Below, piece after piece: positions 10,639 through 49,763 of a DNA stretch of 64,000 bases (its first letter is position 1; every line of letters begins with the position of its first letter). The notes beneath the pieces were generated by a model. That model was not told the origin of the DNA, did not search any database, and was given only the letters and a program-made list of their open reading frames with translations. Source of the DNA: an uncultured Alphaproteobacteria bacterium (lineage in GTDB: Bacteria > Pseudomonadota > Alphaproteobacteria > Rs-D84); NCBI GenBank assembly GCA_934232895.1, contig CAKQGH010000001.1, positions 3,635 through 67,634 of the forward strand, written 5' to 3'. The translations under genes and the position numbers were made by a program.

Positions 10639-10661
10639 AGGAACTGTGGGGGGAATGAAAA

Positions 10662-10738
10662 AGTGCGCCGTCGGCGCACTCTCTATCATCTATTATCTAT
10701 GCTCTGTGCTCTAAAAATGCGCCACCGGCGCATTTTTT
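10662..10738 (-). terminator. Terminator module ending the fibre operon (hairpin, low-complexity tract, hairpin)
   Basis: AGTGCGCC-GTC-GGCGCACT (10662..10680), tract 10681..10712, AAAAA-ATGCGCC-ACC-GGCGCAT-TTTTT abutting the stop at 10737. Confidence 0.7.
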
Positions 10739-11186
10739 ATTCTATCCAAATAGCGGCGTATGTGGTGGCATTTTGCCCACCAACCGGAATTTTTACATTG
10801 CCCTTGGTCACAGAAACCTTGCCGTCGGTCTGGGATACATCGGTCACCACCGCACCCGTACCCGATGATGTTGAATCTAGTGCATTGATTGCATTGGTCA
10901 CGTCCGTCCCGGTTGCAACCTTGGTCTTTGTAAATGTAATGGTTCCATCACCCGTCGCCGTAACATTTGAAATCACATTGCCATCCTTGGTTTCCGTATC
11001 GTTGACAACAACGGTCTTGGCGCGTTCAAGCGCGGTTCCATCATTTAACAGCGGTTGCATTTCACGTTCAACATACTCAACCGATGCGATTGTTCCATCC
11101 TTTTTGACAACATCATCAGCCATGGCCGGCAAGGCAAATATGGCCATCAAACACATAATAACAAAATATCGTCCAATATTAAACAT
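10737..11186 (-). CDS. Secreted fibre-family protein, short member (149 aa)
   Basis: Signal peptide ...FALPAMA; mature IASVEYVEREM motif; T/V/G/D-rich; C-terminus TTYAAIWIE like the other family members. Confidence 0.65.
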   Translation of the reverse strand: MFNIGRYFVIMCLMAIFALPAMADDVVKKDGTIASVEYVEREMQPLLNDGTALERAKTVVVNDTETKDGNVISNVTATGDGTITFTKTKVATGTDVTNAINALDSTSSGTGAVVTDVSQTDGKVSVTKGNVKIPVGGQNATTYAAIWIE

Positions 11187-11270
11187 AACCCGATTTATAT
11201 ATGCACTAGTAACAAAATCACCTTGATGTGTGATATGGGGATTCCCATATCACACAATGTTCACACGCAC

Positions 11271-12179
11271 CTAGCGTTTAACAACTTCCCAGCTGTATGT
11301 CGTGCCATCAAAAACCAATACGCATTTATTCGTGGCATCGCCGCACGCGCCCGGTGCGGCCGTCGCCAAATCACCCAGTGTTAATGTTTTGCTGACAGTG
11401 ACTGTTCCATCAGCCGCGGTAACCGCCGTCACAACATTACCTTCGCCTGTGGTGGTGACATTGGTGGCACCCAATGTAGCCTGTTTACCTGCCAAATCAT
11501 CGGTCAAACCAGAAATCTTGGACTGGTCAATAGCGGCATTAGCGGCAACATCTGCGTTCGAGATGGTGCTCTTGGCCGCCAAGTCACCCAATGTCGGCTT
11601 GTTCAAGATTTGGGAAACGCCTTCTGTCGAATTCCAGTCCGCATTTACCTGGGCCGCTGGAATTGTCGGTTTGTTATCCAAATCATCATACGATACTGTG
11701 CCTGGTGCGACCTTACCTTCGGCATTAACAACCATTGTCTTTCCTGCATTAGCCACACCCTGGTCTGTGGCAACTTTGCCCGCCAAATCATCGGTCAAAC
11801 CAGAAATCTTGGACTGGTCAATAGCGGCATTAGCGGCAACATCTGCGTTCGAGATGGTGCTCTTGGCCGCCAAGTCACCCAATGTCGGCTTGTTCAAGAT
11901 TTGGGAAACGCCTTCTGTCGAATTCCAGTCCGCATTTACCTGGGCCGCTGGAATTGTCGGTTTGTTATCCAAATCATCATACGATACTGTGCCTGGTGCG
12001 ACCTTACCTTCGGCATTAACAACCATTGTCTTTCCTGCATTAGCCACACCCTGGTCTGTGGCAACACGAAGTCCAACCTGGTCATCAACGTACTTGCTTG
12101 ATGCGATGTCTGCGCGGGCGGCGCCGGCCGTCATAATTGCAATCATTGAAATCGCAAATATTCCCGATAATTTTTTCAT
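11271..12179 (-). CDS. Secreted tail-fibre-like repeat protein (302 aa) with an exact 97-aa tandem duplication
   Basis: ORF 11271..12200 trimmed to MKKLSGIF (AAAGGA 7 nt upstream); signal peptide ...AGAARA; IASSKYVDDQV; C-terminus PGACGDATNKCVLVFDGTTYSWEVV. Confidence 0.75.
   Translation of the reverse strand: MKKLSGIFAISMIAIMTAGAARADIASSKYVDDQVGLRVATDQGVANAGKTMVVNAEGKVAPGTVSYDDLDNKPTIPAAQVNADWNSTEGVSQILNKPTLGDLAAKSTISNADVAANAAIDQSKISGLTDDLAGKVATDQGVANAGKTMVVNAEGKVAPGTVSYDDLDNKPTIPAAQVNADWNSTEGVSQILNKPTLGDLAAKSTISNADVAANAAIDQSKISGLTDDLAGKQATLGATNVTTTGEGNVVTAVTAADGTVTVSKTLTLGDLATAAPGACGDATNKCVLVFDGTTYSWEVVKR
11491..12065. repeat. Perfect tandem direct repeat, two 284-bp copies at 291-bp period
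   Basis: 11491..11774 and 11782..12065 are identical base for base on my line-by-line comparison; in-frame (97 codons). Confidence 0.95.
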
Positions 12180-12256
12180 TTTTATTTCCTTTGCTTTCAT
12201 TTATCAAAATTTATGCCATGGCACGCCAACGACGCACCACGGCATTTGGTTATTTA

Positions 12257-13126
12257 TTATTCACCTGTGACCTGGTTTTCGGTATCGGCGCGTTCAATGA
12301 TTTCCCATACATAATCGCCGTTTCTATAAACCAACGCGCAACCATCATTATTGGGATCGTCACACGCTGTCTGTGGCTTTGGAATCGCGGCGTTCGCGGT
12401 TTCTTGTGCGGTATCCGCAGCGGATTTTGCCGCGGCGGCATCGGTTACACCCTTGTCTGCCTGGGTTTGGGCGGCTGTAATTTTTTCATCCAATGCAGTA
12501 TCGGCCGCGGTGTACGCATTCGTGATTGTGGTTGTTGCCGCATCAATTTTATAATCAACCGAGCCTTCGGTGGTTTTATCGGCATTCAATTTTGTGATTG
12601 CATCTGTATTTGTACCGATATTTGTTTCATTGGTGGAAACACGTCCTTCCAATGTCGTCAAATCGGTTGAAACCGCATCCGCTGCATTTTTCGCAATTTC
12701 TTCGGCGACGGCAACGGTCGGGAACTTTACAGCCTTGTCGGTTGCATCTTTGTTATATGTAGTTTCTTTATTAGCAGAATTTTCTTTGCCTTCTACGGTT
12801 GTTTTCAAACCATCAATGGCGGTTTTATTTTCACCAATTGATGTTGTATTACCAGCAATTGCAGTTTTATTTGCTTCGATATCTGCTTTGATTGCCTTGT
12901 CGTCATACTGGGCTTTTGTACCATCAATTGTGATTTTGCCATCAACAACTGTCACATCGATACCGTTTGAACCGGCGATGTTTCCATTTTCACCGGTGAC
13001 CAATGTGTCTTGCTTTTTGCCAACTTCTTGGTCAACATATCCACGGGATGCAACGGCGGCGGCGGCGCTGTTTGCCGCGACAATCCCCAACATTACGGTA
13101 AATATACCTGCGGTTAATTTGTTCAT
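12257..13126 (-). CDS. Secreted tail-fibre-like repeat protein (289 aa)
   Basis: Strong SD GAAAGGAAAG; signal peptide ...ANSAAA; VASRGYVDQEV; GKENSANK module; C-terminus PKPQTACDDPNNDGCALVYRNGDYVWEII. Confidence 0.75.
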   Translation of the reverse strand: MNKLTAGIFTVMLGIVAANSAAAAVASRGYVDQEVGKKQDTLVTGENGNIAGSNGIDVTVVDGKITIDGTKAQYDDKAIKADIEANKTAIAGNTTSIGENKTAIDGLKTTVEGKENSANKETTYNKDATDKAVKFPTVAVAEEIAKNAADAVSTDLTTLEGRVSTNETNIGTNTDAITKLNADKTTEGSVDYKIDAATTTITNAYTAADTALDEKITAAQTQADKGVTDAAAAKSAADTAQETANAAIPKPQTACDDPNNDGCALVYRNGDYVWEIIERADTENQVTGE

Positions 13127-13165
13127 TTTTCTTTCCTTTCTTTTTTTATTGTTTTTCTAATCTGT

Positions 13166-14491
13166 TTATTCCAACGGGTCTGTCACATCCATCCAGTATG
13201 GGTTGCCATTCGTATCAACCGACAACACGCAACGTCCGGATTCGGCCGTGCAATTTTCGCCTGGTTTCGGTACCGCGTATGCGGTCACGGCCTTGACTGA
13301 TGTGTATTTGGTTGTGGAATCTTTGTCGGCGGCCGCGATTTCATCAACACGGTTTGCGGTCTTTTCAACGCCATTTAATTCCGTTGTGATATCATTTTTG
13401 GTTGCCAAATCAGAAATTTTTGTTGTGGACATTTCATATTGACCGGTTGCATTCACGGTTGCGATGCCGCCCGCGGTTTCAGCGGTCACACCGGTGACCT
13501 TGTCCGCCTTGGCTGCGACGCTGGTCGCCACGCCATCAATACGGGTGCCCAGCGCGGTGTCAGCCTCGGTCATTAAATCGGTCAATGTGCTGACGGAATC
13601 GTCAACCAATGTGTTCACAGCCTTGGCCGATGGATATTGAACATCGGTCGATGTTGACGATATTGTGGTCACCTTGTTGGATTTGTCTTCCTTGCCATCA
13701 ATGTCGCCCAGTGCCAGGTCAAACATATCGTTCACCGCTTTGGCCGTTGGGTATTGGTCGTCGGTCGATTCCGCTGAAATCACCTTGGTTTTGTTTGACA
13801 CATCTTCTTTACCCGCAACAGATGTTTTCAACGATGAAATATCTGTTTTGTTGGTGTCAACCTGGGTCGATACAGCGCTCAACGCGGTTGCCGTGGCCAG
13901 ATCAGAAATCTTGGTTGATGTGGCAACATACTGACCGGCCGCGTTCACAGTTGCGATGCCGTCGGTGTTTTCCGCGGTCATACCAGAAACTTTATCGGCC
14001 TTGGCCGCCAATGCGTCGCCCATATCGCCCGCGACAATTTGCGCAACTTTATCCTCGGTAAATTTAACGATTGCGCCAACCGATGGATACAGTGTGCCCG
14101 ACGCCTTGTTCGCATCGGTAATTTCGGTCGCCTTGTTCGACGAATCCTCTTTACCGGTCACCGCTTCCTGTAATGCCGTGACATTTGTTTCAGTTGTGCC
14201 AACACGTGTTGTCAAACCGGTCACCGCATTGTTGGTTGTTGTCAATGCCGCATTTGTCGCCAAATCACCAATTGATGTTGTGGAAACCTGGTATTGGCCA
14301 TTTGCATCAACCGTTGCAACATTGCCAGCATTGGCGCCAACATTTGCAACCACATTCGCCTTGGTACCAACCAAATTGTCAACATAGGCCTGGCTGGCGA
14401 TTTTCTTGGCCGTGCCATCGGCCGCCGCCGCCGCGCCAACCGACATGATTGCCGCCACAAATCCAGAAAATGCGATATTATTTATTTTCAT
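13166..14491 (-). CDS. Secreted tail-fibre-like repeat protein (441 aa)
   Basis: SD AAGGA; signal peptide ...VGAAAA; IASQAYVDNLV; threefold GKED.SNK...YP[ST]AKAV and KADKV.G.TAE...ATVNA.GQY..S.TKISDLAT modules; C-terminus PKPGENCTAESGRCVLSVDTNGNPYWMDV. Confidence 0.75.
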   Translation of the reverse strand: MKINNIAFSGFVAAIMSVGAAAAADGTAKKIASQAYVDNLVGTKANVVANVGANAGNVATVDANGQYQVSTTSIGDLATNAALTTTNNAVTGLTTRVGTTETNVTALQEAVTGKEDSSNKATEITDANKASGTLYPSVGAIVKFTEDKVAQIVAGDMGDALAAKADKVSGMTAENTDGIATVNAAGQYVATSTKISDLATATALSAVSTQVDTNKTDISSLKTSVAGKEDVSNKTKVISAESTDDQYPTAKAVNDMFDLALGDIDGKEDKSNKVTTISSTSTDVQYPSAKAVNTLVDDSVSTLTDLMTEADTALGTRIDGVATSVAAKADKVTGVTAETAGGIATVNATGQYEMSTTKISDLATKNDITTELNGVEKTANRVDEIAAADKDSTTKYTSVKAVTAYAVPKPGENCTAESGRCVLSVDTNGNPYWMDVTDPLE

Positions 14492-14532
14492 CTGTTTTTT
14501 CCTTGGTTATATTTCATCCCTATTTCCCGGAT

Positions 14533-15990
14533 TTACTCGGGTTCCACAATTATAATCTCGGACCATGTGCCACCACCATTGCCGTCGGCCGCAAATATAT
14601 AGTTGCCAGCCGTCTCGGGCGCCACCATACCACCGGTTGCCGAAATGGTATTGCCATCAATCGTGATGTTCGCGCCCGCGGTCAATTTATCCTGTTTGTC
14701 CGCCAACGCGGTATTCGTTTCGGTTTTGGTATAATATTGATCCGCATCAAATGTACCAGATTGGGTAATTTTTGCATCAACCTCGGTCTTGGTATACGCA
14801 TCATCAATACCATATCCCGCCAGGGTCGTTGCCTTGTCCGCTTTGTTTGAAATGGCCGTTGTATTTGCCGAAATCGCCGCAGTGTTCGCAGTGATATTGG
14901 TTGTATTCGTCGTGATATTCGCGGTATTTGCATCTACGGCATTTTTATTTGCGGTAATGTTTGCGGCATTCGCATTTATCAACGCACGCACCGCCGCGTC
15001 ATCGTACGATTCCGCCGAAATAGTATCGCCATCAATCGTAATATTCGTGCCCGCGGTCAATTTATTTTGTTTACCTTCCAGTGCCGTGTTGGTCTCAGTC
15101 TTGGTATAATACTGATCCGCATCAAATGTGCCGGATTGGGTAATTTTTGCATCAACCTCGGCCTTGGTATACACATCATCCTTGGCCGCATAGATTGTAG
15201 ACAATGCACTGATTGCATTCGCAATCGCGGTGTTCATTTGTTCTGTTGTGGAATACGCACTTAAATCTGCCGGCGTACCGGGCTCACCCGCCGGTCCCTG
15301 AGGCCCCATAATTTCTGCCTTGGAAATCAGCTGGCGCCAATCGGCATCACTTTCGCCCACATATCGCCACAACAAATCTTCTTCATTTGAACCAATTTCA
15401 ACCTCGCGCCCATCCTGGCCGGCGATACTGCCGATTTGATCCTTTAACCCATCAACATCAACATAGATTTCGTTTGTCGTATTATCAATTATGATAAAAC
15501 CATCGGATGTCGGCACCAATATATCCTGTTTATCACCCAATTGGTCGGACAAATTATCGTCCGCCTGGTGCAACCCCTCGGCATCGCGTTGCAACTGTTC
15601 AACCTGGCGCCGCAAATCCGCCACAACCGACGGATCGGTTGTGCCGCTCTCGCCCGGATCTGGGCGCGTAGAACTGCCCCCGCTGACGGATGTGGTACCA
15701 CCCAAATATTTCCCAATGGACAAACGCGGCGTTGTCGCCACACGGCCCGTCGTTGTTGATGTCGCCGGCGTTGTTGACGCCACAGCGCCGGTTTTCCCCG
15801 CCGTTGGTGTCACACGCAACGACCCCGCACGCGCCGCACCGGTTGATGCTGCATTCGACGCGGCCGATGCACTGGAATAAGTTCCAGCCCCACCCAACGA
15901 ACGCACCGATGACGCCGCGTCAGCCCCGGAAACCGCGGCACACGCCGCACACACAATTGCAAATATCGATATTTTGGTGTTATTTTTCAT
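14533..15990 (-). CDS. Secreted tail-fibre-like repeat protein (485 aa) with low-complexity S/T/A/G N-terminal region
   Basis: Signal peptide ...AAVSGADA; two copies of YTK[AT]EVDAKITQSGTFDADQYYTKTETNTAL..KQ[DN]KLTAG.NITIDG.TISA; NITANT-type short repeats; C-terminus GNYIFAADGNGGGTWSEIII. Confidence 0.75.
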   Translation of the reverse strand: MKNNTKISIFAIVCAACAAVSGADAASSVRSLGGAGTYSSASAASNAASTGAARAGSLRVTPTAGKTGAVASTTPATSTTTGRVATTPRLSIGKYLGGTTSVSGGSSTRPDPGESGTTDPSVVADLRRQVEQLQRDAEGLHQADDNLSDQLGDKQDILVPTSDGFIIIDNTTNEIYVDVDGLKDQIGSIAGQDGREVEIGSNEEDLLWRYVGESDADWRQLISKAEIMGPQGPAGEPGTPADLSAYSTTEQMNTAIANAISALSTIYAAKDDVYTKAEVDAKITQSGTFDADQYYTKTETNTALEGKQNKLTAGTNITIDGDTISAESYDDAAVRALINANAANITANKNAVDANTANITTNTTNITANTAAISANTTAISNKADKATTLAGYGIDDAYTKTEVDAKITQSGTFDADQYYTKTETNTALADKQDKLTAGANITIDGNTISATGGMVAPETAGNYIFAADGNGGGTWSEIIIVEPE

Positions 15991-16052
15991 GACTCTCTCT
16001 GCTTACCTTGATTCTATCATATTTTGCGAATCGGGGTCAATACCTTTCGTAA

Positions 16053-16784
16053 TTAAAATTCGTATCTGACGCCAACCGATATAGAATTATCCCAAATCAT
16101 GTCGATTTTGTTTTCGAAATTGCCGTATGTCGGTCTGTTGTTCTTGATTCCAATGCTGTGTTTTGAACCAGTCATACCCGCCAAACGATAGCGCAAATCC
16201 AATATCAAATTGTCATCCAATTTGGTTGAATACCCGACCGCAATGTTTGCCATTGGCGCAATGGCCGTTTTGCTGCGGCTGGTACCATCGGAATATACAT
16301 TTGCAAATTTAATATCCAATGTTGTCATTGGCGCGGCAATACCCAAACCACCACCAACATACACACCGTTCAAGAAATCATAGTATCCGTTGGCCGAAAT
16401 GTACGGGATTTGCAGGCTGAATTCTGCGCCAGCATCTTTATCTTCGAAATGACCGATGTATCCGGCCTCGACCTCGCCCCGCCAGAAATATCCGAAATGA
16501 CGACCGGCGGCCAAACTGCCCCCGAATACGGGTTCAAACGAGTAACTGTCGCTGTCGGCCGACAGATCAGCCGTCGCCGACAACAAATCAGACGAGTATT
16601 TATTCTTCCAATTCAGGAAACTAATCTCGGCACGGGCGGTCATATACCAGCCTGTTTTTGCCTTGTCCGTGTAATCGTATGTCACATTATAACCGCCACG
16701 ACGATCCGGCTGAATATAGCTGGGTGCCGCAGTGGCCGCAGATGTCATACCAATCAGCACAAACAACGAAACTAATTTTTTCAT
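16053..16784 (-). CDS. Small outer-membrane beta-barrel protein (OmpA-TM/Opa-like, 243 aa)
   Basis: Strong SD GGAAGGAG; signal peptide MKKLVSLFVLIGMTSAATA; alternating amphipathic strands; C-terminal VGVRYEF (terminal Phe) typical of OM barrels. Confidence 0.75.
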   Translation of the reverse strand: MKKLVSLFVLIGMTSAATAAPSYIQPDRRGGYNVTYDYTDKAKTGWYMTARAEISFLNWKNKYSSDLLSATADLSADSDSYSFEPVFGGSLAAGRHFGYFWRGEVEAGYIGHFEDKDAGAEFSLQIPYISANGYYDFLNGVYVGGGLGIAAPMTTLDIKFANVYSDGTSRSKTAIAPMANIAVGYSTKLDDNLILDLRYRLAGMTGSKHSIGIKNNRPTYGNFENKIDMIWDNSISVGVRYEF

Positions 16785-16862
16785 GTTAAAATTCTCCTTC
16801 CAATATCTTGGGCAAAGTATATCACATTTTTGCCCTGTTTCAAAATAGTAAAAAAGTAAATA

Positions 16863-16932: not shown

Positions 16933-17334
16933 ATGAACAAAATTTTTGCTTGTATTGCATTATTGGGTTTGGCGGCATGTTGTGGCGCCCCGAATGACAT
17001 TAATAATGACCAGGTTTATTTCGCGTTTGATTCTGCAAAAATCTCGGACCAGGCACGCGACAGTCTGGATGCCCAGGCAAAATATATGAAATTACATCCC
17101 GACCAGAATGTCCGACTGGAGGGTCACTGTGACGAACGCGGTTCCACCGAATACAATTTGGCACTGGGCGCGTTGCGCGCGGGCAATGCCGCACATGTTT
17201 TAATTCGCGACGGAATTGAACCAGAACGCATTAAAACCATTTCATACGGCAAAGAAAACCCACAGTACCCCGGCAGCGGCGAGGAAGTATGGGCAAAAAA
17301 CAGAAATGTCACAACCAAGGTTGTGGAAAAATAA
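16933..17334 (+). CDS. pal: Peptidoglycan-associated lipoprotein (OmpA_C-like)
   Basis: Lipobox LGLAAC; OmpA-like domain VYFAFDSAKI...RLEGHCDERGSTEYNLALGALRA...YGKENP. Confidence 0.88.
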   Translation: MNKIFACIALLGLAACCGAPNDINNDQVYFAFDSAKISDQARDSLDAQAKYMKLHPDQNVRLEGHCDERGSTEYNLALGALRAGNAAHVLIRDGIEPERIKTISYGKENPQYPGSGEEVWAKNRNVTTKVVEK

Positions 17335-17445
17335 AAAAACGGGGCGTCGCCCCGTTTTTTCAAAGTTCAAATACCAAAGTACAAAGTTCAAATAATGTGT
17401 GCGCCGAATGGCGCACTGCTTTATTCATTTGAACTTTGAACTTTT
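17333..17445 (+). terminator. pal terminator plus extended composite hairpin
   Basis: AAAAAAA-CGGGGCG-T-CGCCCCG-TTTTTT (17333..17360); tract 17361..17395; GTGCGCC-GAAT-GGCGCAC (17399..17416); inverted tract 17420..17445. Confidence 0.7.
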
Positions 17446-27729: not shown

Positions 27730-28848
27730 TTACATGCGCATCGGCATCAATATGAACAATGCATCTGTGTCCTTGTCCGTCGATTTAATAATCGTTGGCG
27801 ACAACGGATCCTGCATTTCCATCTGGAATTTTTCACCTTCGACCTGGCCGGCAACATCCATCAAGAATTTCACATTAAATGTGACCGTGAACGATGCATC
27901 GCCATTGTATTCAATGTCCAATTCCTGGGTCGCGGTACCGGCATCCGGACTGGACGCATTCACAACCAGTTTGTTCATTGAATATGTCAATTGCACAGAT
28001 TTCGTTTTATCCATACTGGCAACAGACACCAAGTCAACAGCGTTCAAGAATTGTTTTCTGTCCAGAACGGCAATCTTGTCATTGCCCTTTGGAATTACGA
28101 CACGATAGTTTGGATATTGCGCATCAACCAGTTTGCTGGTCAAAATTGCCGCACCAACCGTGAAACGCGCCTTGGTATCAGACAATTCAACCGTCACATC
28201 ATCAACTGTCGCATCTTCCAGTAACTTGGACAATTCGCCAATCACGCGACGTGGCAAAATAACCGCCGGCATTTCCGCACTGCCCGCCGGGGCCGGCATT
28301 GCACACAGGGCCATACGTTGGGCATCGGTTGCAACCGCGGTCAGCATTTTTTCTTTGCCTTCGTCCGCGATGTGGAAATAAATACCACCCAAGTGATAAC
28401 GAACATCGTCGGTTGGGATTGCAAATTTGGTCTGGTTTATCAGGTGTGCCAAATCGCCCGTTGTCATCTGGAATTTTGTGGTCAGATTGCTGCCCGCCAT
28501 GGCAGGGAAATTTTCCGCCGGCAATGTTGGCAAACGGAATACCGCACGACCGCTGGACACAACCAACTGGTCACCATTCTGTTTGAATGTGATTTCCGCG
28601 TCATCTGGCAATTTACGAACGATATCGTACAACATCTGAACAGGAACAGTTGTTTTGCCCCCCAATGTGATATCGGCCGCGACATGTTCAACCAATTCCA
28701 AATCAACATTCGTCGCAGACAGAATCAAATCGTCTGCAACCTCTAACTTTACATTCATCAATATCGGCAGTGTTGCGCGCTTTTCCACAATTGACTGCAT
28801 GTGGCCCAATGCACGAATTAAAACCTGACGAAATACTGAAAATTCCAT
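27730..28848 (-). CDS. dnaN: DNA polymerase III beta sliding clamp
   Basis: 372 aa; N-terminus MEFSVFRQVLIRALGHMQSIVEKRATLPILMNVKL and three-domain length typical of DnaN. Confidence 0.88.
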   Translation of the reverse strand: MEFSVFRQVLIRALGHMQSIVEKRATLPILMNVKLEVADDLILSATNVDLELVEHVAADITLGGKTTVPVQMLYDIVRKLPDDAEITFKQNGDQLVVSSGRAVFRLPTLPAENFPAMAGSNLTTKFQMTTGDLAHLINQTKFAIPTDDVRYHLGGIYFHIADEGKEKMLTAVATDAQRMALCAMPAPAGSAEMPAVILPRRVIGELSKLLEDATVDDVTVELSDTKARFTVGAAILTSKLVDAQYPNYRVVIPKGNDKIAVLDRKQFLNAVDLVSVASMDKTKSVQLTYSMNKLVVNASSPDAGTATQELDIEYNGDASFTVTFNVKFLMDVAGQVEGEKFQMEMQDPLSPTIIKSTDKDTDALFILMPMRM

Positions 28849-36758: not shown

Positions 36759-38738
36759 ATGACAGAAAATAATACACACACATACGACGCATCAGATATT
36801 CAGGTATTAGAGGGGCTGGAGCCCGTTCGTCTGCGCCCTGGGATGTATATCGGGGGCACCGATGAAAAGGCGTGGCACCACCTGCCGATTGAAATTATGG
36901 ACAACTCGATTGACGAGGCGGTGGCCGGCTTTGCCAAGAAAATCACCGTGAACCTGATTGATGCAAAAACTATTGAAATTACCGACGATGGTCGTGGTAT
37001 CCCGGTTGACGAACACCCAAAATACCCGGGCAAGTCTGCGCTAGAGGTTATTTTGACTACCCTGCATTCGGGCGGCAAGTTCAATAATAATGTTTATAAA
37101 ACCAGTGGTGGTCTGCATGGCGTGGGAAGTGCGGTTGTAAATGCATTGTCATCAGAAATGGTCGTCACCATTTCGCGCGATGGGTACGAGTGGCATCAGT
37201 CCTTTTCGCGCGGCAAAACAACATCGCCAATTACGCGCGGAAATGCCACAAAAAATCACGGGACAAAAATCCGCTTTACCATCGATGATGAAATATTCGG
37301 CGCGAATGCCGTGTTCAAGCCGATTAAAATCTATCGTATGGCGCGTGCGAAATCATTCCTGTCGCGCGGGGTAAAAATTGATTGGCATTGCAACCCGGAA
37401 TTATTGACCGAGGATATGAACATCCCGGCCGACACAACATTTTATTACCCGGGTGGAGTGGCCGATTTCTTGGACGAAAAGACCCGCGACAAACCACGCA
37501 TTTTGCCCAAAATTTTCAGCGGCAGCGTTGATTTCCCAGATGACACGGGTCGCGTGGAATGGGCACTGACGGTGCTGACCGATGAAAATGGTGCGGCATC
37601 CGATGATGGATTTTTTGCATCATACTGCAACACGATTGCAACGATTGACGGTGGCACACACGAAACCGGGTTCAAGGCCGCAATTACCAAGGGGATAAAG
37701 GCATACGGCGAAAAAGTAAATAACAAGGCTGCCGCAACAATCATTGGCGACGACGTATTCGATTCGGTCGCGGCGATTGTATCTGTGTTCTATAAAACAC
37801 CGCAATTTTTGGGCCAGACCAAGGAAAAATTATCCAACCCGGAAATTGCCCGATACACCGAAAACGCCCTGCGCGACCCATGGGAAATATTCCTGGCATC
37901 GGACCCCAAAACGGCAAATGCACTGTTGGATTTTGTCGTGAATTTGGCCAATGCACGTATCAAGACCAAACAGGTCAAGGATATCGCACGCAAAACCCCG
38001 ACCAAGCGCGCGCGCATGCCGGCGAAACTGGCCGATTGTTCCAAGCATGGAATCGAAGGCACAGAACTGTTTATCGTCGAGGGGGAATCCGCGGGCGGCA
38101 CCGCGAAACAGGCACGCGACCGCGCAACCCAGGCGATTATGCCCCTGCGTGGCAAGGTGTTAAATGTTATTTCTAATTCCGACGAACGTTTCGGCGCGAA
38201 CAAGGAATTAAACGAACTGATTGACATTATCGGCGCCGGCACGGCCAAGGATTGGGATGAATCCAAATTGCGCTATGAAAAAATTATCGTTATGACCGAT
38301 GCCGATGTCGACGGCAGCCATATCGCATCGCTGTTGATGGCTTTTTTCTATCAGCACATGCCGCAACTGATTTACGGTGGCCATCTGTATTTGTCATGTC
38401 CGCCATTGTATAAATTCACATGCGGAACCGAATCGTTCTATGTTGACACGGACGAAGAACTGGACGCATTGCAAAACGGCAAATATAAAAATAAAAAAGT
38501 GGAAATTTCCCGATTCAAGGGTTTGGGCGAAATGATGCCGAACCAGTTAAAGGAAACGACCATGTCGCCAAAAACGCGGCGGTTGATTCGCGTTGACCTG
38601 CCCCCACGGACGGACGATGGTGCCGAGGATACGGAAAAAACCCGCACAATTGTTTCCGAACTGATGGGTAAAAAGCCCGAATTTCGTTTCCGCTTTATCA
38701 CCGAACATGCACAATTCGTCAAAGATTTGTTTGTCTGA
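36759..38738 (+). CDS. parE: Type IIA topoisomerase B subunit, most likely topoisomerase IV ParE
   Basis: 659 aa; LEGLEPVRLRPGMYIGGTDE, Toprim EGESAGG, PLRGKVLNV, DADVDGSHI; short length favours ParE over GyrB but does not prove it. Confidence 0.75.
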   Translation: MTENNTHTYDASDIQVLEGLEPVRLRPGMYIGGTDEKAWHHLPIEIMDNSIDEAVAGFAKKITVNLIDAKTIEITDDGRGIPVDEHPKYPGKSALEVILTTLHSGGKFNNNVYKTSGGLHGVGSAVVNALSSEMVVTISRDGYEWHQSFSRGKTTSPITRGNATKNHGTKIRFTIDDEIFGANAVFKPIKIYRMARAKSFLSRGVKIDWHCNPELLTEDMNIPADTTFYYPGGVADFLDEKTRDKPRILPKIFSGSVDFPDDTGRVEWALTVLTDENGAASDDGFFASYCNTIATIDGGTHETGFKAAITKGIKAYGEKVNNKAAATIIGDDVFDSVAAIVSVFYKTPQFLGQTKEKLSNPEIARYTENALRDPWEIFLASDPKTANALLDFVVNLANARIKTKQVKDIARKTPTKRARMPAKLADCSKHGIEGTELFIVEGESAGGTAKQARDRATQAIMPLRGKVLNVISNSDERFGANKELNELIDIIGAGTAKDWDESKLRYEKIIVMTDADVDGSHIASLLMAFFYQHMPQLIYGGHLYLSCPPLYKFTCGTESFYVDTDEELDALQNGKYKNKKVEISRFKGLGEMMPNQLKETTMSPKTRRLIRVDLPPRTDDGAEDTEKTRTIVSELMGKKPEFRFRFITEHAQFVKDLFV

Positions 38739-39980: not shown

Positions 39981-41456
39981 TTATTGGATACCGACGCGGA
40001 ACTCGTCACCCCAACCGGCGACAGCCTGGCCGCCAACGGTACATTGCAGGGCATCAAAACCTTTTTCAACTTGATTTTTCTTGACCACATGGCTGGTCAC
40101 CAAACCACCGGTTGTCCCCAGCACCACGGCGGCAATAGAATCCGATGCCAAACGCGCAGTGTTGAAATTACCCTCGGCATCTTTCCATACGGTCACCTTG
40201 AAATCATCTTGCATGCTGTCCAGTTTGCTGATGATTCCACTGATTTTATTGCGCGATGTTGTTTGTTGAACAGACAATTGGACCGCCGCGGCATTTTGTG
40301 CCAGCTGGTTTTGTGCCGAAATCAATGCACGCAATTGCGCCATTAAACTGTTAAATTTAACCGAATCGCGATTGCTGTCATTTGTACAGAATTCCAAAAT
40401 CGCATTGATTTTGCTTTGGATTTCAGTATTTGTTGCATATTGTTCCAACCATGCGTACAACATATTCAAATCAGATTCCGCACAGGTATATGTGGATTGA
40501 TTGTTATTGTTTTGCACAATCGTGGCGCCAACACAACTGCGACTGGATGTGTTAAATGTTTTCGTCGTATCAACACATTTGCAATTTGTGCCGTTCCATG
40601 TTGCGACCGATGACGGGACATAGCAACAGGCCTTGCCCTCAGCCGATGAACGCGAATTCAAACATTTTTGCAGTGTGCTGTTTTGTACGGCACCTTTGGC
40701 CACACATTTTTTGTTGACCGCATCCCACACATGTTTATCACCACAATTGCATGCCGTACCATTCCAGTTTGCAGGTTCACCCCGTGCAGCGGCCGCCGCA
40801 CAATCGGACTGTGCCGCATTCGCACCACCATTTGATGCGTTTTTATTTACTACGCCCGCAACCGAACATTTGCCATTGTTAGCCACCATACCCTCGATAC
40901 ACTTGGTCGCCTTGCACACAAATTTCGGTCCCTCGCGGCAGACGCCCTCGAATTCGACACCATTTTGATCGGTCAGCTCTATACCGCTGCATTCAATTTT
41001 GGTCAAAACACGTACGGCGCCATCTTTCATCAAATGTTGTCCAACCGGAACATCGCCAAACGAATTTGTTTTGCAGACGCCGTCCTGCAATTCTTCCCAA
41101 CGGTCGTTGCCACCCTTGCCACCGCGGAATAACAATTCCGTTTTGCAGATGTACGATGCCTTGTGATTGATTACTTGGCCCTTGAATACATGTCCGATCG
41201 GCATATTCACAGATTGCCCCGTGGTATATCCACCAGAATTATATGCGTCGCATTCATATGCATACCCGCCACCAGAATTTTTATGCCCGGTCGTTTCGTA
41301 CCCGTTTTTTGCCATGTTATACTGTGTTGCGTTTTCGTACAAAAACTCGTCATCATCTGGTTCTTGTGACCCCTCGTAACTGATGATGGTCGCGCCGGCC
41401 GCAAACACCGACATTGGCGCCAAAGTCAAACACAAAATTGCTAGTATTTTTTTCAT
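39981..41456 (-). CDS. Secreted Cys-rich protein (491 aa), unknown function
   Basis: GGAGAAAG SD; signal peptide MKKILAILCLTLAPMSVFA; many Cys incl. duplicated W-N-G-T-x-C-x-C...C-V module; coiled-coil-like Q/A/L region; Gly-rich hydrophobic segment near the C-terminus. Confidence 0.65.
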   Translation of the reverse strand: MKKILAILCLTLAPMSVFAAGATIISYEGSQEPDDDEFLYENATQYNMAKNGYETTGHKNSGGGYAYECDAYNSGGYTTGQSVNMPIGHVFKGQVINHKASYICKTELLFRGGKGGNDRWEELQDGVCKTNSFGDVPVGQHLMKDGAVRVLTKIECSGIELTDQNGVEFEGVCREGPKFVCKATKCIEGMVANNGKCSVAGVVNKNASNGGANAAQSDCAAAAARGEPANWNGTACNCGDKHVWDAVNKKCVAKGAVQNSTLQKCLNSRSSAEGKACCYVPSSVATWNGTNCKCVDTTKTFNTSSRSCVGATIVQNNNNQSTYTCAESDLNMLYAWLEQYATNTEIQSKINAILEFCTNDSNRDSVKFNSLMAQLRALISAQNQLAQNAAAVQLSVQQTTSRNKISGIISKLDSMQDDFKVTVWKDAEGNFNTARLASDSIAAVVLGTTGGLVTSHVVKKNQVEKGFDALQCTVGGQAVAGWGDEFRVGIQ

Positions 41457-41587: not shown

Positions 41588-42871
41588 TTATTTGCATTCG
41601 GCAACCAATTGATTTATTTGCGCCGCCAAAACCAAATCGGTCTGTTTTTGTTTTTCAACTTGGGCAATGGCATATACAACCGTCGCATGGTCGCGCCCAC
41701 CAACATAACCGCCAATTTCAGACAACGACAAACCTGTTGCAGATTTCAACACCGCCATCATAACCTGGCGCGCCATAACCAATGCGCGACTGCGCCCACG
41801 ACCACATACCGCGTCATACGAAACGCCCAATTTTTCGCACATTGCGCGCACCATGGAAATTGGTGTTTTTGCGCGCTGCAATGTGTCGGCCAACAAGCGC
41901 GATGCAACACTCATATCGACCGGCATTCCCATCAAATCATTATATGTTTTGATTTTCATAATAACGCCACGAACCAAATGACCATCGGCCGCCGTGCGAT
42001 GCGCCAATTCGGTTGCAACATCTGACGCAACGCCCGCACGCAACAGCATTACGCGACGAACATTTTCGTTCGGCTGAACCATATCCGCAACCAAGCCCGA
42101 TGCCATCAGCGATTGCGCACGACGATCAAAACCCGTCAAATTGCCTGGTGCCGCGTTTGCCGTTAAAACGATGTTTTTGCCGGCACTGCGCAAATCCATA
42201 ATCAGTTGCATAAATTCTTCGCATGTGGCGCGTTTACCCGCCAACATTTGAACATCATCCATAATAAATGTATCACAATTGCGGCAGTAATCTTTGAATG
42301 CGAAAATTGTACGGTCGTGCAACGCGCGTGCAAATTCAGAAACAAAATTCCCACCGGTCATCATAATGGTGCGACCCGTCGCCGCCGAATTGATGCAATT
42401 GGCCAACAACGATTTGCCACAACCCGCCGGTCCATAAATAAACAACGGCGAGAATGGTACACACCCCGCCGCCAATTTTTTGCATGCCGACACAACAAAC
42501 GCATTCTCGTCGGACGCAACAAATTCATCGAATGTTGCGGTCGTTGCATCATCTGTGGCGCGCGCCGCCGGTGCATAGGATTGAACCGCATTATCATTTG
42601 CAACGGTTGCCGCCACAGACGCCGCACCACGCACCGCGATACGCACCGCCAAACCATATTCCGCCGCAACCGCGTTTAACGTCGCGCCGTGCACGCCTGA
42701 AATAAAATCGGCCGAGAATTGATTTTGCGCGGTCAGCACCAATGTATTATCGACAATTTCAAAATTCAGTGGAGAAATCCAGGACGAGAACGCAGCAGAA
42801 TCCATTTTTGCGGCAATGGCCCCCTTGATAACTTCCAAGTTAGTCATTTTTATTGTCGCCGCTGCCTGCAT
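41588..42871 (-). CDS. dnaA: Chromosomal replication initiator DnaA
   Basis: ORF 41588..42931 trimmed to MQAAATIK (ATG 42871 preceded by AAGGAAGGAGA); AAA+ Walker A GPAGCGKS, C-terminal DNA-binding region ...GGRDHATVVYA. Confidence 0.9.
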   Translation of the reverse strand: MQAAATIKMTNLEVIKGAIAAKMDSAAFSSWISPLNFEIVDNTLVLTAQNQFSADFISGVHGATLNAVAAEYGLAVRIAVRGAASVAATVANDNAVQSYAPAARATDDATTATFDEFVASDENAFVVSACKKLAAGCVPFSPLFIYGPAGCGKSLLANCINSAATGRTIMMTGGNFVSEFARALHDRTIFAFKDYCRNCDTFIMDDVQMLAGKRATCEEFMQLIMDLRSAGKNIVLTANAAPGNLTGFDRRAQSLMASGLVADMVQPNENVRRVMLLRAGVASDVATELAHRTAADGHLVRGVIMKIKTYNDLMGMPVDMSVASRLLADTLQRAKTPISMVRAMCEKLGVSYDAVCGRGRSRALVMARQVMMAVLKSATGLSLSEIGGYVGGRDHATVVYAIAQVEKQKQTDLVLAAQINQLVAECK

Positions 42872-42929
42872 GTCGTTTCTCCTTCCTTTCAGAGTTTCCT
42901 GCCAGCGCAAGAGTGTAAAAATCACCTGC

Positions 42930-42975
42930 ACATAAACGCTAAATTTTACTGTTCCATAAAATTTAGTGTTTATGT
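42930..42975. promoter_or_regulatory. 19-bp inverted repeat in the dnaA upstream/leader region
   Basis: ACATAAACGCTAAATTTTA-CTGTTCCA-TAAAATTTAGTGTTTATGT, one mismatch; 59..104 nt upstream of the dnaA start. Confidence 0.5.
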
Positions 42976-48150: not shown

Positions 48151-49041
48151 TTATTCTTCGGATGTTGTAATTACCAACACGCGGTTTCCTTTATAGAATT
48201 TCGCATACGGAATTGGTGTTGCGCGTCCAAAATTACGAACCAAAGCCGACGCCACATCAACAAAACGACCTTTGAATACGGCGCTGGCCTCTATCGGATA
48301 TTCACGCGATGTCGCCCATACTAAATCCCAGCCTTCTTTGTCGCACCAGTTTTGCAGAACCTCGCGCAATGTTTGACCATTAGCAACAACCCACGAACGA
48401 ACCTGGTCGGTCAATTTTTGGGCCGGTTCCGCATCGGCGGATGTGTCAACCGCGATTTCTTTTTCTTCGACAATTTCACCATTTTCATCGGTGACTGTTT
48501 TTGTCATACCCATCTTGGCCGCGAATGCCGCATATCCATCGGATGCATTGTTGCAATTTTTGCGACCACTGCGCGACACGGTCAGGACACTGCCCCCGTC
48601 ATCTTCCAACATTTCGCGATGCAGCAATGGCATTTCGGAACCGTTGTTGCATTCGTCATCAAAACCGACCGGAATCTGGTTGCCATGCAACATATTCGCC
48701 CCACCCGACCAATCGCCATATCCGTTAGTCGCCAGGTTGAAATTATTTTCCACAACCAAATCATTACCAATTTTGGAAACAATTCTGATATTATCAGATG
48801 TTGCCGATTTTTCGCACGCCGCATCGCCACACGCAACCGTCACATCTGCATCAGACCCAGCAATCGGCCACACCGGAACCGGCATCTGCGTTTCCTGGGT
48901 GTCAACATATTGGTTTTCATCAACCACATCTTCCTGGGTATAGAAAACCTCGCTCGTGACGACCTGGGGCAAAGATTCCGCCGCAAAGCAATAGCCCGCC
49001 GCGGTTGCAAACATTGCGACAATCAAAAATTTACGGAACAT
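48151..49041 (-). CDS. PilL/TcpQ-domain protein (296 aa)
   Basis: ORF 48151..49251 trimmed to MFRKFLIVAMFATAAGYCFA (AAGGAAG SD); C-terminal WVVANGQTLREVLQNWCDKEGWDLVWATSREYPIEASAVFKGRFVDVASALV...NRVLVI fits the TcpQ/PilL C-terminal domain pattern. Confidence 0.65.
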   Translation of the reverse strand: MFRKFLIVAMFATAAGYCFAAESLPQVVTSEVFYTQEDVVDENQYVDTQETQMPVPVWPIAGSDADVTVACGDAACEKSATSDNIRIVSKIGNDLVVENNFNLATNGYGDWSGGANMLHGNQIPVGFDDECNNGSEMPLLHREMLEDDGGSVLTVSRSGRKNCNNASDGYAAFAAKMGMTKTVTDENGEIVEEKEIAVDTSADAEPAQKLTDQVRSWVVANGQTLREVLQNWCDKEGWDLVWATSREYPIEASAVFKGRFVDVASALVRNFGRATPIPYAKFYKGNRVLVITTSEE

Positions 49042-49217
49042 AAAAACTTCCTTTCCTGAATAAGTTGTTTTATTTATTGAACTTATTATAACAATTTGAC
49101 CGAATCTGTGCAAGACCAAATCGCACCCAACAAATTTAATATTTTCAAGATAAAATCGCACGAATCGGTAAAAGATGTTATACTGGTCGTGTTTAATACG
49201 ATATACGGGGCGTAAAA

Positions 49218-49763
49218 ATGCAAAACATATTGATTTTAAGTGGAATTTCAATTCTCATCATCATTGGCATTGCAATCATTGCCATGTTGGTCGGCATGCG
49301 CGGACAAATGCGCGACATCACAAAAACGCAAACATACCAATATAACCTGATTGTGAAAATTCAATCTGTATTGAAAAACAAGTCGGCCACAAATGCGGTT
49401 GCAGAACACGCCGAAATGATTTACCAGGATTTATTACAAAATTTAATTCCTATTATGGCGGCAATTGACATTATGCCGCGCGCAACCCCCGAACACCCGT
49501 TGTGGCGCGCGCTGGGGGGCATTTTGGATGAATATGGTAAAAACCCATTTGTTATGGAAAAATTGCGCCGTTGCATCAAACTGGATGCCGAGGTCGCACG
49601 CAGCGTCGACAATTACATGAACCGCGCCGATGGATTTTTACAACATTTGACCACAACCGAACCAGATGGCATATTGACATCAACATTTACCGACGGGCTG
49701 TTGGGGCAATCGTTGACATTTTTTGCCCAGGCACGTGCCCTGGCCGCCCAGAATAATGAATAA
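49218..49763 (+). CDS. Hypothetical membrane-anchored protein (181 aa)
   Basis: N-terminal TM ILILSGISILIIIGIAIIAMLV; stop TAA abuts the sufB ATG. Confidence 0.55.
   Translation: MQNILILSGISILIIIGIAIIAMLVGMRGQMRDITKTQTYQYNLIVKIQSVLKNKSATNAVAEHAEMIYQDLLQNLIPIMAAIDIMPRATPEHPLWRALGGILDEYGKNPFVMEKLRRCIKLDAEVARSVDNYMNRADGFLQHLTTTEPDGILTSTFTDGLLGQSLTFFAQARALAAQNNE

Follow-up and report, generated by a model that had tools for sequence, protein, structure and literature searches.

A syntenic gene array for a small outer membrane barrel and five fibre-like secreted proteins in uncultured gut Alphaproteobacteria: candidate cell-surface fibres with phage- and adhesin-type modules

The window analysed here is a stretch of 64,000 nucleotides (nt) of contig CAKQGH010000001.1 (GenBank assembly GCA_934232895.1) from an uncultured alphaproteobacterium of the order Rs-D84. 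Its open reading frame (ORF) listing revealed an array of six co-directional genes on the minus strand at 10737-16784, in which a gene for an outer membrane (OM) beta-barrel comes first and five genes for fibre-like secreted proteins follow. The gaps between them measure, in the 5' to 3' direction, 62, 41, 39, 56-77, and 84 nt. An earlier model-made note on this DNA, referred to here as the original prediction, had described six minus-strand genes separated by 39-84 nt, and all of the ORFs were found in that arrangement. At the N-terminus, all six proteins show the elements of a Sec signal: a basic n-region, then a hydrophobic core, and then a cleavage region rich in Ala.

Upstream of the barrel gene, the minus strand carries a promoter-like site of the form TTGAAA-16-TGnTATACT (16816-16843), detected by a consensus scan with 10/12 matches and an extended -10 element, as well as a Shine-Dalgarno (SD) sequence, GGAAGGAGA (16793-16801), identified by direct reading. 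Directly after the last fibre gene is an intrinsic-terminator-like symmetric hairpin on the minus strand, AAAAATGCGCC...GGCGCATTTTT followed by a T-run (10713-10738), supported by both the scan and direct reading; this palindromic hairpin was scored on the plus strand in the scan. The SD and promoter region and the terminator that had been proposed for the array were both legible in the sequence. A second GC hairpin with a T-run, also found by scan and reading, lies beyond the first at about 10658-10679. Two further minus-strand signals occur inside the array, namely a second promoter-like site revealed by the scan between the barrel gene and the first fibre gene (16011-16040), and a 15-bp hairpin followed by T-rich AAATTTTGA between the third and fourth fibre genes (12213-12245; terminator-like scan and direct reading). 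The latter is a candidate element that could act as a partial terminator or stabilise the RNA. Because of these two internal signals, the description of the array as a single operon needs to be qualified. Two GC-rich hairpins with flanking A/T runs were also observed between pal and ftsE (17332-17416). One of them is perfectly symmetric, was found on both strands, and may be a bidirectional terminator; its stem arms GTGCGCC...GGCGCAC recur with a different loop at ~10663-10679 downstream of the array, and the recurring hairpin may represent a small repeated terminator element.

The first gene (16053-16784, minus strand) encodes a 243-amino-acid (aa) protein with a signal peptide, ~10 predicted strands, and the C-terminal beta-signal VGVRYEF. 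Its AlphaFold2 (AF2) model, based on an alignment with 33 homologues, was confident and contained ~10 strands, with a mean predicted local distance difference test score (pLDDT) of 85 and a predicted template modelling score (pTM) of 0.77. A Foldseek comparison with the PDB matched this model to OmpT, OprG, OmpA, NspA, Ail, and the Legionella Dot/Icm porin III with template modelling (TM) scores of 0.45-0.54, and with E=6e-8 to 1e-5 for the first five. The barrel-family profile had no match among PDB sequences. Homologues of the barrel are 53-66% identical, and many are annotated as PF13505 or 'porin family protein', with the precomputed PF13505 annotations graded 'faint' or 'weak' in the locus tables. 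The 243-aa protein has a signal peptide, a predicted barrel, and a terminal aromatic beta-signal in common with small alphaproteobacterial outer membrane protein barrels (PF13505 OMP_b-brl, Omp25/Omp31-like). It differs from the PF13505 barrels in having no Pfam match itself at E<=1 and in carrying an N-terminal extension of ~25 aa, GGY.VTYDYTDKAKTGWY, which is unusually strongly conserved. Judging from the model, it is an ordinary-looking, generic small OM protein. The barrel gene heads the array in 12/12 examined distinct loci that extend that far. The idea that the barrel anchors the fibres was not supported by these data, given a generic barrel with this degree of conservation in a neighbourhood that is syntenic as a whole; because of that synteny, linkage of barrel and fibres does not by itself prove a functional coupling.

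The five remaining proteins share a distinctive composition and similar ends. The residues A/T/N/D/G/V/K/S make up 68-77% of each fibre, Cys is confined to a C-terminal pair or to the signal peptide, and Trp occurs at the extreme C-terminus. Four of the fibres carry the motif [IV]AS..YV[DE] at residues 25-38, and these are the only four occurrences in the six-frame translation of the window, for which we roughly estimate a chance expectation of ~0.2. The motif was never seen at an internal position among 140+ related or module-sharing proteins. A C-terminal motif is found in all five fibres, three with and two without the Cys pair. The Sec signals, the fibre-like composition with almost no Cys except at the C-terminus, the N-terminal motif in four of the five fibres, and the shared C-terminal Trp motif whose Cys pair is missing in two members had all been noted in the original prediction and hold true. 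The five had also been called paralogues. Here, the relatedness at both termini stands, and overall paralogy is weak, as the pairwise identity of the fibres is low (22-28%) and convincing mainly at the two ends.

No match to Pfam (E<=1) or NCBIfam was obtained for any of the six proteins, and sequence searches of the PDB with the 441-, 289-, and 309-aa proteins returned nothing meaningful. Across orthologues, Pfam gave sub-threshold matches to coiled-coil families only (DUF1664, DUF7310, Baculo_PEP_C, DUF4795). Literature searches on the lineage, on foldon-like proteins of bacteria, and on the PDB entries revealed no earlier description of the locus. In agreement with the proposal that the fibres fit no characterised family, they appear, on the basis of their sequences, to belong to none that has been described, and their similarity to phage tail fibres and to the stalks of trimeric autotransporter adhesins (TAAs) is confined to short modules.

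The first fibre gene (14533-15990, minus strand) encodes a 485-aa protein with a signal peptide and without the IAS..YVD motif. Its conserved N-terminal region spans ~260 aa, begins at the mature N-terminus with ASSVRSLGG.GTY, and continues with a linker rich in Ser, Thr, and Gly, in which GS.RV and PRLSIG.YLGG are invariant; a coiled coil comes next, and then a beta-rich domain. The last of these ends in a short collagen-like GPQGPAGEPG (GPQG..GEPG across orthologues), beyond which a variable stalk extends. The C-terminal hairpin is Cys-free and reads NYIFAADGNGGGTWSEIII in the window protein; across species the position-1 C-termini read VLGTD.NG..VWYEIAF or NYIFAADGNGGGTWSEI. The position-1 homologues (n=920) are 45-60% identical over the N-terminal 55-60%. 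Several matches connect this protein with known trimeric stalks. The similarity of residues 345-392 to 2wpr, a stalk fragment of SadA, has E=6e-6 and concerns a polar coiled coil of the N@d kind, with Asn at core position d; the position-1 orthologue profile matches NadA (4cjd, E=5e-3) and the coiled-coil inserts of GCN4 fusions (7oaa/7oac, E=7e-4), in both cases through ADVYTK.EVYTKTE. Because of these matches, the YTK[AT]EVDAKI module can be assigned to a stalk motif known from trimeric coiled-coil adhesins, in line with the original prediction, which had associated it with phage tail-fibre or trimeric fibre proteins. Residues 168-249 match phrog_19976, 'tail assembly protein', at E=2e-4. 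Two Cys residues in the core of the signal peptide (residues 14 and 17; 15940-15951) are invariant in 17/17 aligned orthologues, with no lipobox. Lipoprotein anchoring was considered for the array and rejected, as no lipobox precedes any Cys and the position-1 signal-peptide Cys do not fit [LVI][ASTVI][GAS]C.

The position-2 fibre (13166-14491, minus strand) consists of 441 aa and carries, after its signal peptide, IASQAYVD (14378-14401). It holds two tandem KED.SNK...YP[ST]AKAV modules and terminates in PKP..C..ESGRCVLSVDTNGNPYWMDV (nt 13184-13252). Across species, the consensus of this position is IAS..YVD together with P.P...C..ESG.CVLSV.T.G...W.NVT.P. The 441-aa protein has 403 homologues. 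Length variants of 383-441 aa occur in close relatives, and one of these length differences corresponds to the gain or loss of an entire KED.SNK module. The module is also present in signal-less phage-type proteins, one of them with a tail-collar domain (as KED.SNK...YP[ST]A.AV). A HMMER search with the position-2 profile against 1.84 billion cluster representatives yielded 3,116 clusters at E<=1e-3. Among 138 new top representatives at 50% identity, the N-terminal motif (residues 25-38) was seen in 62/138, the Cys-Cys-Trp C-terminus in 63/138, and both in 52/138; the rest are giant repeat proteins that have only internal modules in common with the fibre. The low-confidence AF2 model of the 441-aa protein shows a helix starting right at the IAS motif, a succession of helices 30-45 residues long with beta-hairpins between them, and, after a Pro-rich stretch, a C-terminal hairpin formed by CVLSV and YWMDV (421-425/431-435, pLDDT 64-76).

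The position-3 fibre (289 aa; 12257-13126, minus strand) has a signal peptide and VASRGYVD at 13031-13054. Its sequence is of the segmented coiled-coil kind known from fibritin, and its C-terminus reads PKP..C..C.L....Y.WEII (nt 12296-12364). The consensus across species is IAS..YVD plus PKP...C.NPTNKCVL.....Y.WE.I.R., and the proteins found at this place of the array in the close relative L001 and in the related loci L005 and L012-L016 are orthologues that carry PKP...C.NPTNKCVL...Y.WE.I.

The fourth fibre gene is a 309-aa ORF (11271-12200, minus strand) whose product has a signal peptide and IASSKYVD at 12084-12107. Translation likely starts at the second ATG, 12179, which we favour because an SD-like AAGGAAA sits between the two ATGs; the length of 302 aa that had been given for this protein is thus likely right. 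The protein contains two copies of a 97-aa unit with the phage tail-fibre repeat YDDLDNKPTIP..NADW, and its C-terminus reads C..NKCVLVFDGTTYSWEVV (nt 11280-11345). The 309-aa sequence matches phrog_9729, 'tail fiber', at E=1e-23, and its repeat is matched by cyanophage and phiRSL1 tail fibres in tblastn searches. At the DNA level the repeat is an exact-register tandem duplication of 291 nt (11475-12056). The copies are 98-99% identical, which suggests that the duplication is very recent or has been kept homogeneous by recombination. The last and shortest fibre (149 aa; 10737-11186, minus strand) has a signal peptide, IASVEYVE at 11067-11090, beta-hairpin repeats of the form G.VV..VSQTDGKVSVTKG, and a Cys-free C-terminus, KIPVGGQNATTYAAIWIE. 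The last-position C-terminal consensus across species is KIPVGS..A.TYA.IW[IV]E. Over its last 50 aa, the 149-aa protein shares 79-93% identity with the proteins at the end of the array in L001, L005, L013, and L015 and 65% with that of L016. Compared with L001, the N-terminal part of this protein has been replaced. Nothing in the L001 DNA corresponds to 10905-12082; that genome has a different gene there, with an N-terminal part that resembles the position-3 protein.

Homologues of the fibres and of the barrel are unnamed proteins from gut metagenomes and metagenome-assembled genomes (MAGs). At least 10 species-level genomes carry the locus on the chromosome in a syntenic context, all from uncultured gut Alphaproteobacteria, including the uncultured Rickettsiales UMGS860/UMGS1180, Hadza and Brazilian MAGs, and Candidatus Enterousia avistercoris. 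The order is fixed: tolB ... ftsX-ftsE-pal, then divergently the barrel gene, 4-6 fibre genes, a VTT-domain gene, rbfA, and lepA. The linkage of the barrel with YVD-motif fibres, which had been suggested as something to look for in related genomes, is thus found in the same order across species. No phage genes were present within +/-10 kb of the locus in any genome examined, no tail, baseplate, usher, or YadA-anchor genes were found adjacent to it, and the signature peptides of the family had no relative among 2.9 million IMG/VR viral contigs. These neighbourhoods corroborate the earlier view that the array is not a prophage module and has no tail, baseplate, usher, or type V secretion genes beside it; rather than being restricted to prophages, the homologues are chromosomal and syntenic, with a signature absent from IMG/VR. 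The notion of interchangeable fibres was not supported. At positions 1-3, each protein is an orthologue specific to its place, and every genome keeps this order; number and content vary only at the distal positions, which alone are swapped between strains. Judging from the sequences, the array has a fixed order and is not built of exchangeable cassettes.

A single module-sharing protein, P0032, was noticed in an unrelated-looking genome (GCA_963587575.1; L017, 8072-11383). It has a signal peptide, VASQSYVD, and KED.SNK modules, and does not have the C-terminal Cys-Trp signature. Its upstream neighbours are a membrane protein without a Pfam match, which we take from its sequence to be MotA/ExbB-like, and a 370-aa OmpA-domain protein. 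No barrel homologue is among these neighbours, and linkage to a barrel was rejected for P0032; this protein, too, adjoins envelope and peptidoglycan-linked genes.

Divergence was measured against L001, the genome closest to the window, with the fibre genes at 12257-15990 aligned to L001 8543-12097. The flanking genes are 97-99% identical with ratios of non-synonymous to synonymous divergence (dN/dS) of 0.015-0.05, and the barrel has a dN/dS of 0.09. The three alignable fibres have dN/dS values of 0.13-0.21 and a dN 6-15 times that of the flanking genes. Their dS (0.35-0.53) also exceeds that of all flanking genes (0.21-0.32), and this excess suggests that divergent alleles were imported by recombination, and not just that selection is relaxed or diversifying. 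Across species, LepA remains ~91% identical and the position-2 fibres fall to ~30%. The high dN, the module indels, the duplication, the distal replacement, and the drop in identity across species would be typical of exposed, diversifying proteins.

The fibres resemble several characterised systems in part. With phage tail-fibre and tail-collar ('microcystin-dependent protein') sequences they have the modules KED.SNK..I....YP[ST]A.AV, YDDLDNKP..NADW, and IADxAVTxxKL in common. The presence of phage tail-fibre modules, already suspected in the original prediction, is substantiated by the phrog_9729, cyanophage, and phiRSL1 matches of the fourth fibre, with the reservation that the 441-aa protein had no match in 50,697 GenBank phage records. 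The phage proteins, in contrast, reside within tail modules and possess neither a signal peptide nor the IAS..YVD N-terminus nor the Cys-Cys-Trp C-terminus. We do not regard the fibres as phage tail fibres, because signal peptides are present and a phage context is absent.

A second likeness is to the TAAs of type Vc (YadA, SadA, NadA), which similarly combine a Sec signal with a modular, repetitive, fast-evolving stalk. The SadA 2wpr and NadA 4cjd matches indicate that TAA stalk motifs occur here, and this should be read as similarity of motifs only. A TAA ends in a C-terminal YadA anchor (PF03895) that contributes four strands per chain to a 12-strand barrel, and this anchor is absent from all five fibres (Pfam E<=1). 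Their C-terminus is instead a short, soluble-looking hairpin, and the barrel is the product of a separate gene, a monomeric protein of ~10 strands.

A possible resemblance to the T4 fibritin (wac) lies in a putative segmented coiled coil with loops, the NxTxI-type registers, and a Pro-rich stretch followed by a predicted Trp hairpin. The fibres differ from fibritin in their signal peptide, in the C-terminal Cys pair of three members, and in not being associated with a virion. One orthologue, P0071, scored 21.0 bits against the Pfam Fibritin_C cut-off of 21, a match limited to profile positions 3-37, which represent the coiled-coil part. Homology of the C-terminal module to the fibritin foldon (27 aa, a beta-hairpin propeller around a Trp) found no support in sequence comparisons. 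Although numerous fusion constructs with the foldon are among the PDB chains, a search of all of them with a 23-sequence profile produced just a chance match to PsaE. The secondary structure predicted for the module, a Pro-rich lead and a hairpin with Trp, would be compatible with a foldon, and the comparison is used below as a structural analogy only.

The closest parallel in kind is provided by the mosaic adhesive trimer (MAT) fibres of Bdellovibrio bacteriovorus, phage-like chimeric trimers on the surface of that predator (PMC10769870). Like MAT, the locus described here encodes multiple paralogous, cell-encoded fibres with Sec signals and phage-like modules, and here too the fibres are probably trimers. 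The conserved N-terminal end of MAT is thought to be cell-proximal and the fibres have been proposed to recognise other cells, and the same is proposed here. Moreover, MAT travels with the Tol-Pal-associated CpoB, and this locus adjoins pal and tolB. There are clear differences as well. MAT proteins have a conserved beta-rich N-domain of ~130 aa after the signal peptide, whereas positions 2-5 have a ~10-aa motif and then a predicted helix; the position-1 N-terminal region, described as a low-complexity linker, a coiled coil, and a beta domain, is likewise unlike the MAT N-domain. At the C-terminus, MAT carries variable tip domains or an S74 protease, whereas the ~30-aa hairpin is the most conserved part of the present fibres. 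No S74 or lectin Pfam match was found in the five fibres, and the solved MAT fragments in the PDB gave no sequence match. Finally, the MAT host is a predator, and here the genes are clustered behind a barrel gene in a gut alphaproteobacterium with a reduced genome that is not known to be a predator. Taken from the sequences, the locus appears to encode a modular fibre adhesin type of cellular origin, probably trimeric, that is not a member of the MAT, TAA, or phage fibre families.

The lifestyle of the lineage is relevant to the interpretation. In Ca. Enterousia, of the order Rs-D84, genomes are reduced, respiration and flagella are lacking, and glycolysis is incomplete; members of the group are predicted to be partner-dependent obligate symbionts or parasites (PMC12306168). 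Synteny and the 91% identity of LepA suggest that the organism of the window belongs to this lineage. The lineage is uncultured, with genomes of roughly 0.75-1.6 Mb, and is widespread in human and animal guts (PMC12306168). We consider it slightly better than an even chance, with a probability of about 0.55, that the five proteins are lineage-specific cell-envelope fibres, matured in the periplasm and displayed on the surface as trimeric, segmented coiled coils. Such fibres would plausibly be a means by which this partner-dependent bacterium attaches to other cells.

As read from the sequences, all five proteins would leave the cytoplasm through Sec and lose their signal peptide to signal peptidase I, after which [IV]AS..YV[DE] would lie ~1-15 residues from the new N-terminus in four of them. 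In the periplasm, the ~30-aa C-terminal module, a Pro-rich lead-in and a hairpin around an invariant Trp, would fold and, by analogy with the T4 fibritin foldon, could nucleate the trimer, with a disulfide staple in three members. The chains would then zip into a segmented trimeric coiled coil that is interrupted by beta-hairpin and beta-layer modules, for which homology to modules of phage tail fibres and TAA stalks was demonstrated. For the final display on the surface, the evolutionary pattern and the lifestyle suggest that an envelope element common to the fibres, possibly the co-encoded barrel or the conserved position-1 N-terminal region, holds them by a conserved end. The fast-evolving shaft may contact partner cells, host surfaces, or glycans, and its diversification may permit escape from phages or antibodies.

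Several observations weigh against this interpretation. The locus has no recognisable OM export or anchor device (YadA anchor, usher, TpsB, or lipobox). With conservation at both ends of the fibres, neither end can be singled out as distal or as the seat of binding specificity. The linkage of barrel and fibres, though perfect, is inseparable from the general synteny of these small genomes, and with a mean dN/dS below 1 positive selection is not demonstrated. In an hhalign comparison, the C-terminal module matched the foldon with a probability of 0.2%. The AF2 monomer of the 441-aa protein was of low confidence (pLDDT 56, pTM 0.21), as might be expected for an obligate oligomer. The Foldseek search with this model against viral predicted structures gave nothing below E=0.1, a result that would also be expected for the monomer model of a probable trimer.

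An alternative is that the proteins are released or only loosely attached, forming a matrix or an S-layer-like coat or travelling as vesicle cargo, and that the barrel is an unrelated housekeeping porin that happens to lie nearby. This would explain why the barrel appears generic, with 53-66% identity compared with ~30% for the fibres and a promoter-like site of its own; a second such site precedes the first fibre gene, the Pfam scan detected no anchor domain, and a secretin gene is present elsewhere in the window. Nevertheless, the strict N-terminal motif and the position-specific C-termini across >60 clusters argue for specific docking or assembly contacts, and a merely neighbouring porin sits uneasily with its first place in all 12 examined distinct loci that reach that far. 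We consider a released coat unlikely.

Quite unlikely, too, in our assessment, is a more elaborate version of the surface-fibre interpretation, according to which barrel and fibres together constitute a previously unknown display device. Foldon-like, disulfide-stapled trimers would be docked by their N-terminus on a dedicated barrel, with the IAS..YVD peptide or the position-1 N-terminal strands inserting into, or binding onto, the ~10-strand barrel.

The fibres could also remain in the envelope, as periplasmic or envelope-spanning trimeric coiled coils that tether or space the OM and the peptidoglycan together with the barrel and Pal. This role is that of Lpp in other bacteria and is covered differently in Alphaproteobacteria. 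In all genomes the locus directly adjoins pal, ftsEX, and tolB, a position that would suit such a function, as would Sec signals without an OM secretion device at the locus, a Cys pair that implies oxidative folding in the periplasm, and a weak Pfam match of one position-1 orthologue to 'Alanine_zipper, major outer membrane lipoprotein'. A tether or spacer, however, would be expected to keep a constrained length, and the fibres range from 149 to >800 aa and differ even between close strains. Their dN, 6-15 times that of flanking genes, the replacement of distal genes, the repeats of the phage receptor-binding type, and a gene number that varies from 4 to 6 are also difficult to reconcile with a tether, which we hold to be distinctly improbable.

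That the proteins are domesticated phage, tailocin, or gene-transfer-agent fibres mounted on a particle encoded elsewhere is very improbable: the modules shared with phage tail fibres and 'tail assembly protein' and a mosaic evolution like that of phage receptor-binding proteins would fit, whereas a Sec signal on every protein is at odds with the cytoplasmic assembly of phage fibres, no phage genes occur within +/-10 kb in any genome, no relative of the family signature was found in IMG/VR, the 441-aa protein is unmatched in GenBank phages, and all species have the array at one fixed site flanked by housekeeping genes.

Other features of the window include further envelope genes. A secretin gene (PF00263; 46483-48147, minus strand) lies directly downstream of a TcpQ-like gene (PF10671; ORF 48151-49251, 296-aa product). 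This pair is 30 kb from the fibre array, has no pilus or type II secretion system ATPase or platform genes beside it, and has dprA near; it could serve competence or pilus export and, speculatively, provide an exit route for periplasmic fibres. A 513-aa protein (59312-60853, minus strand) without a Pfam annotation has a signal peptide, a repetitive N-half, and an alternating-hydrophobic C-half ending in ...ISFNARFAF, and looks like a classical autotransporter (type Va) missed by current profiles. Adjoining dnaA, a gene at 39981-41456 (minus strand) encodes a secreted 491-aa protein with ~27 Cys in C..C/CxC repeats, a C-terminal coiled-coil-like region, and no Pfam match, which is conserved in the related contigs L019 and L020. 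A 697-aa AsmA/TamB-like protein (PF05170, PF13116; 29772-31865, minus strand), a factor of OM lipid transport or biogenesis, is retained in this reduced genome. The window presumably spans the region of the replication origin, since dnaA (41588-42931), gyrB (36759-38738), and dnaN (27730-28848) are all inside; its cumulative GC skew falls almost monotonically, with no clear turning point.

The ~30-aa C-terminal module could represent a new disulfide-stabilised trimerisation tag. A compact locus with a barrel gene could make it testable how trimeric fibres exported by Sec pass the OM and attach to it, a question that also concerns MAT. Were barrel and fibres to form a display device, it would parallel the trimeric autotransporters in a split form with an N-terminal anchor and serve as an attachment organelle of the obligately partner-dependent Rs-D84 gut Alphaproteobacteria. 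If the surface-fibre interpretation is true, the locus would be the second independent case, after the Bdellovibrio MAT, of bacterial surface fibres made from phage receptor-binding modules. It is not known how this lineage contacts its partner (PMC12306168). The array described here, on which a very small genome spends ~6 kb at the same site in every genome examined and whose products diversify faster than the surrounding genes, is a concrete candidate for that contact apparatus.

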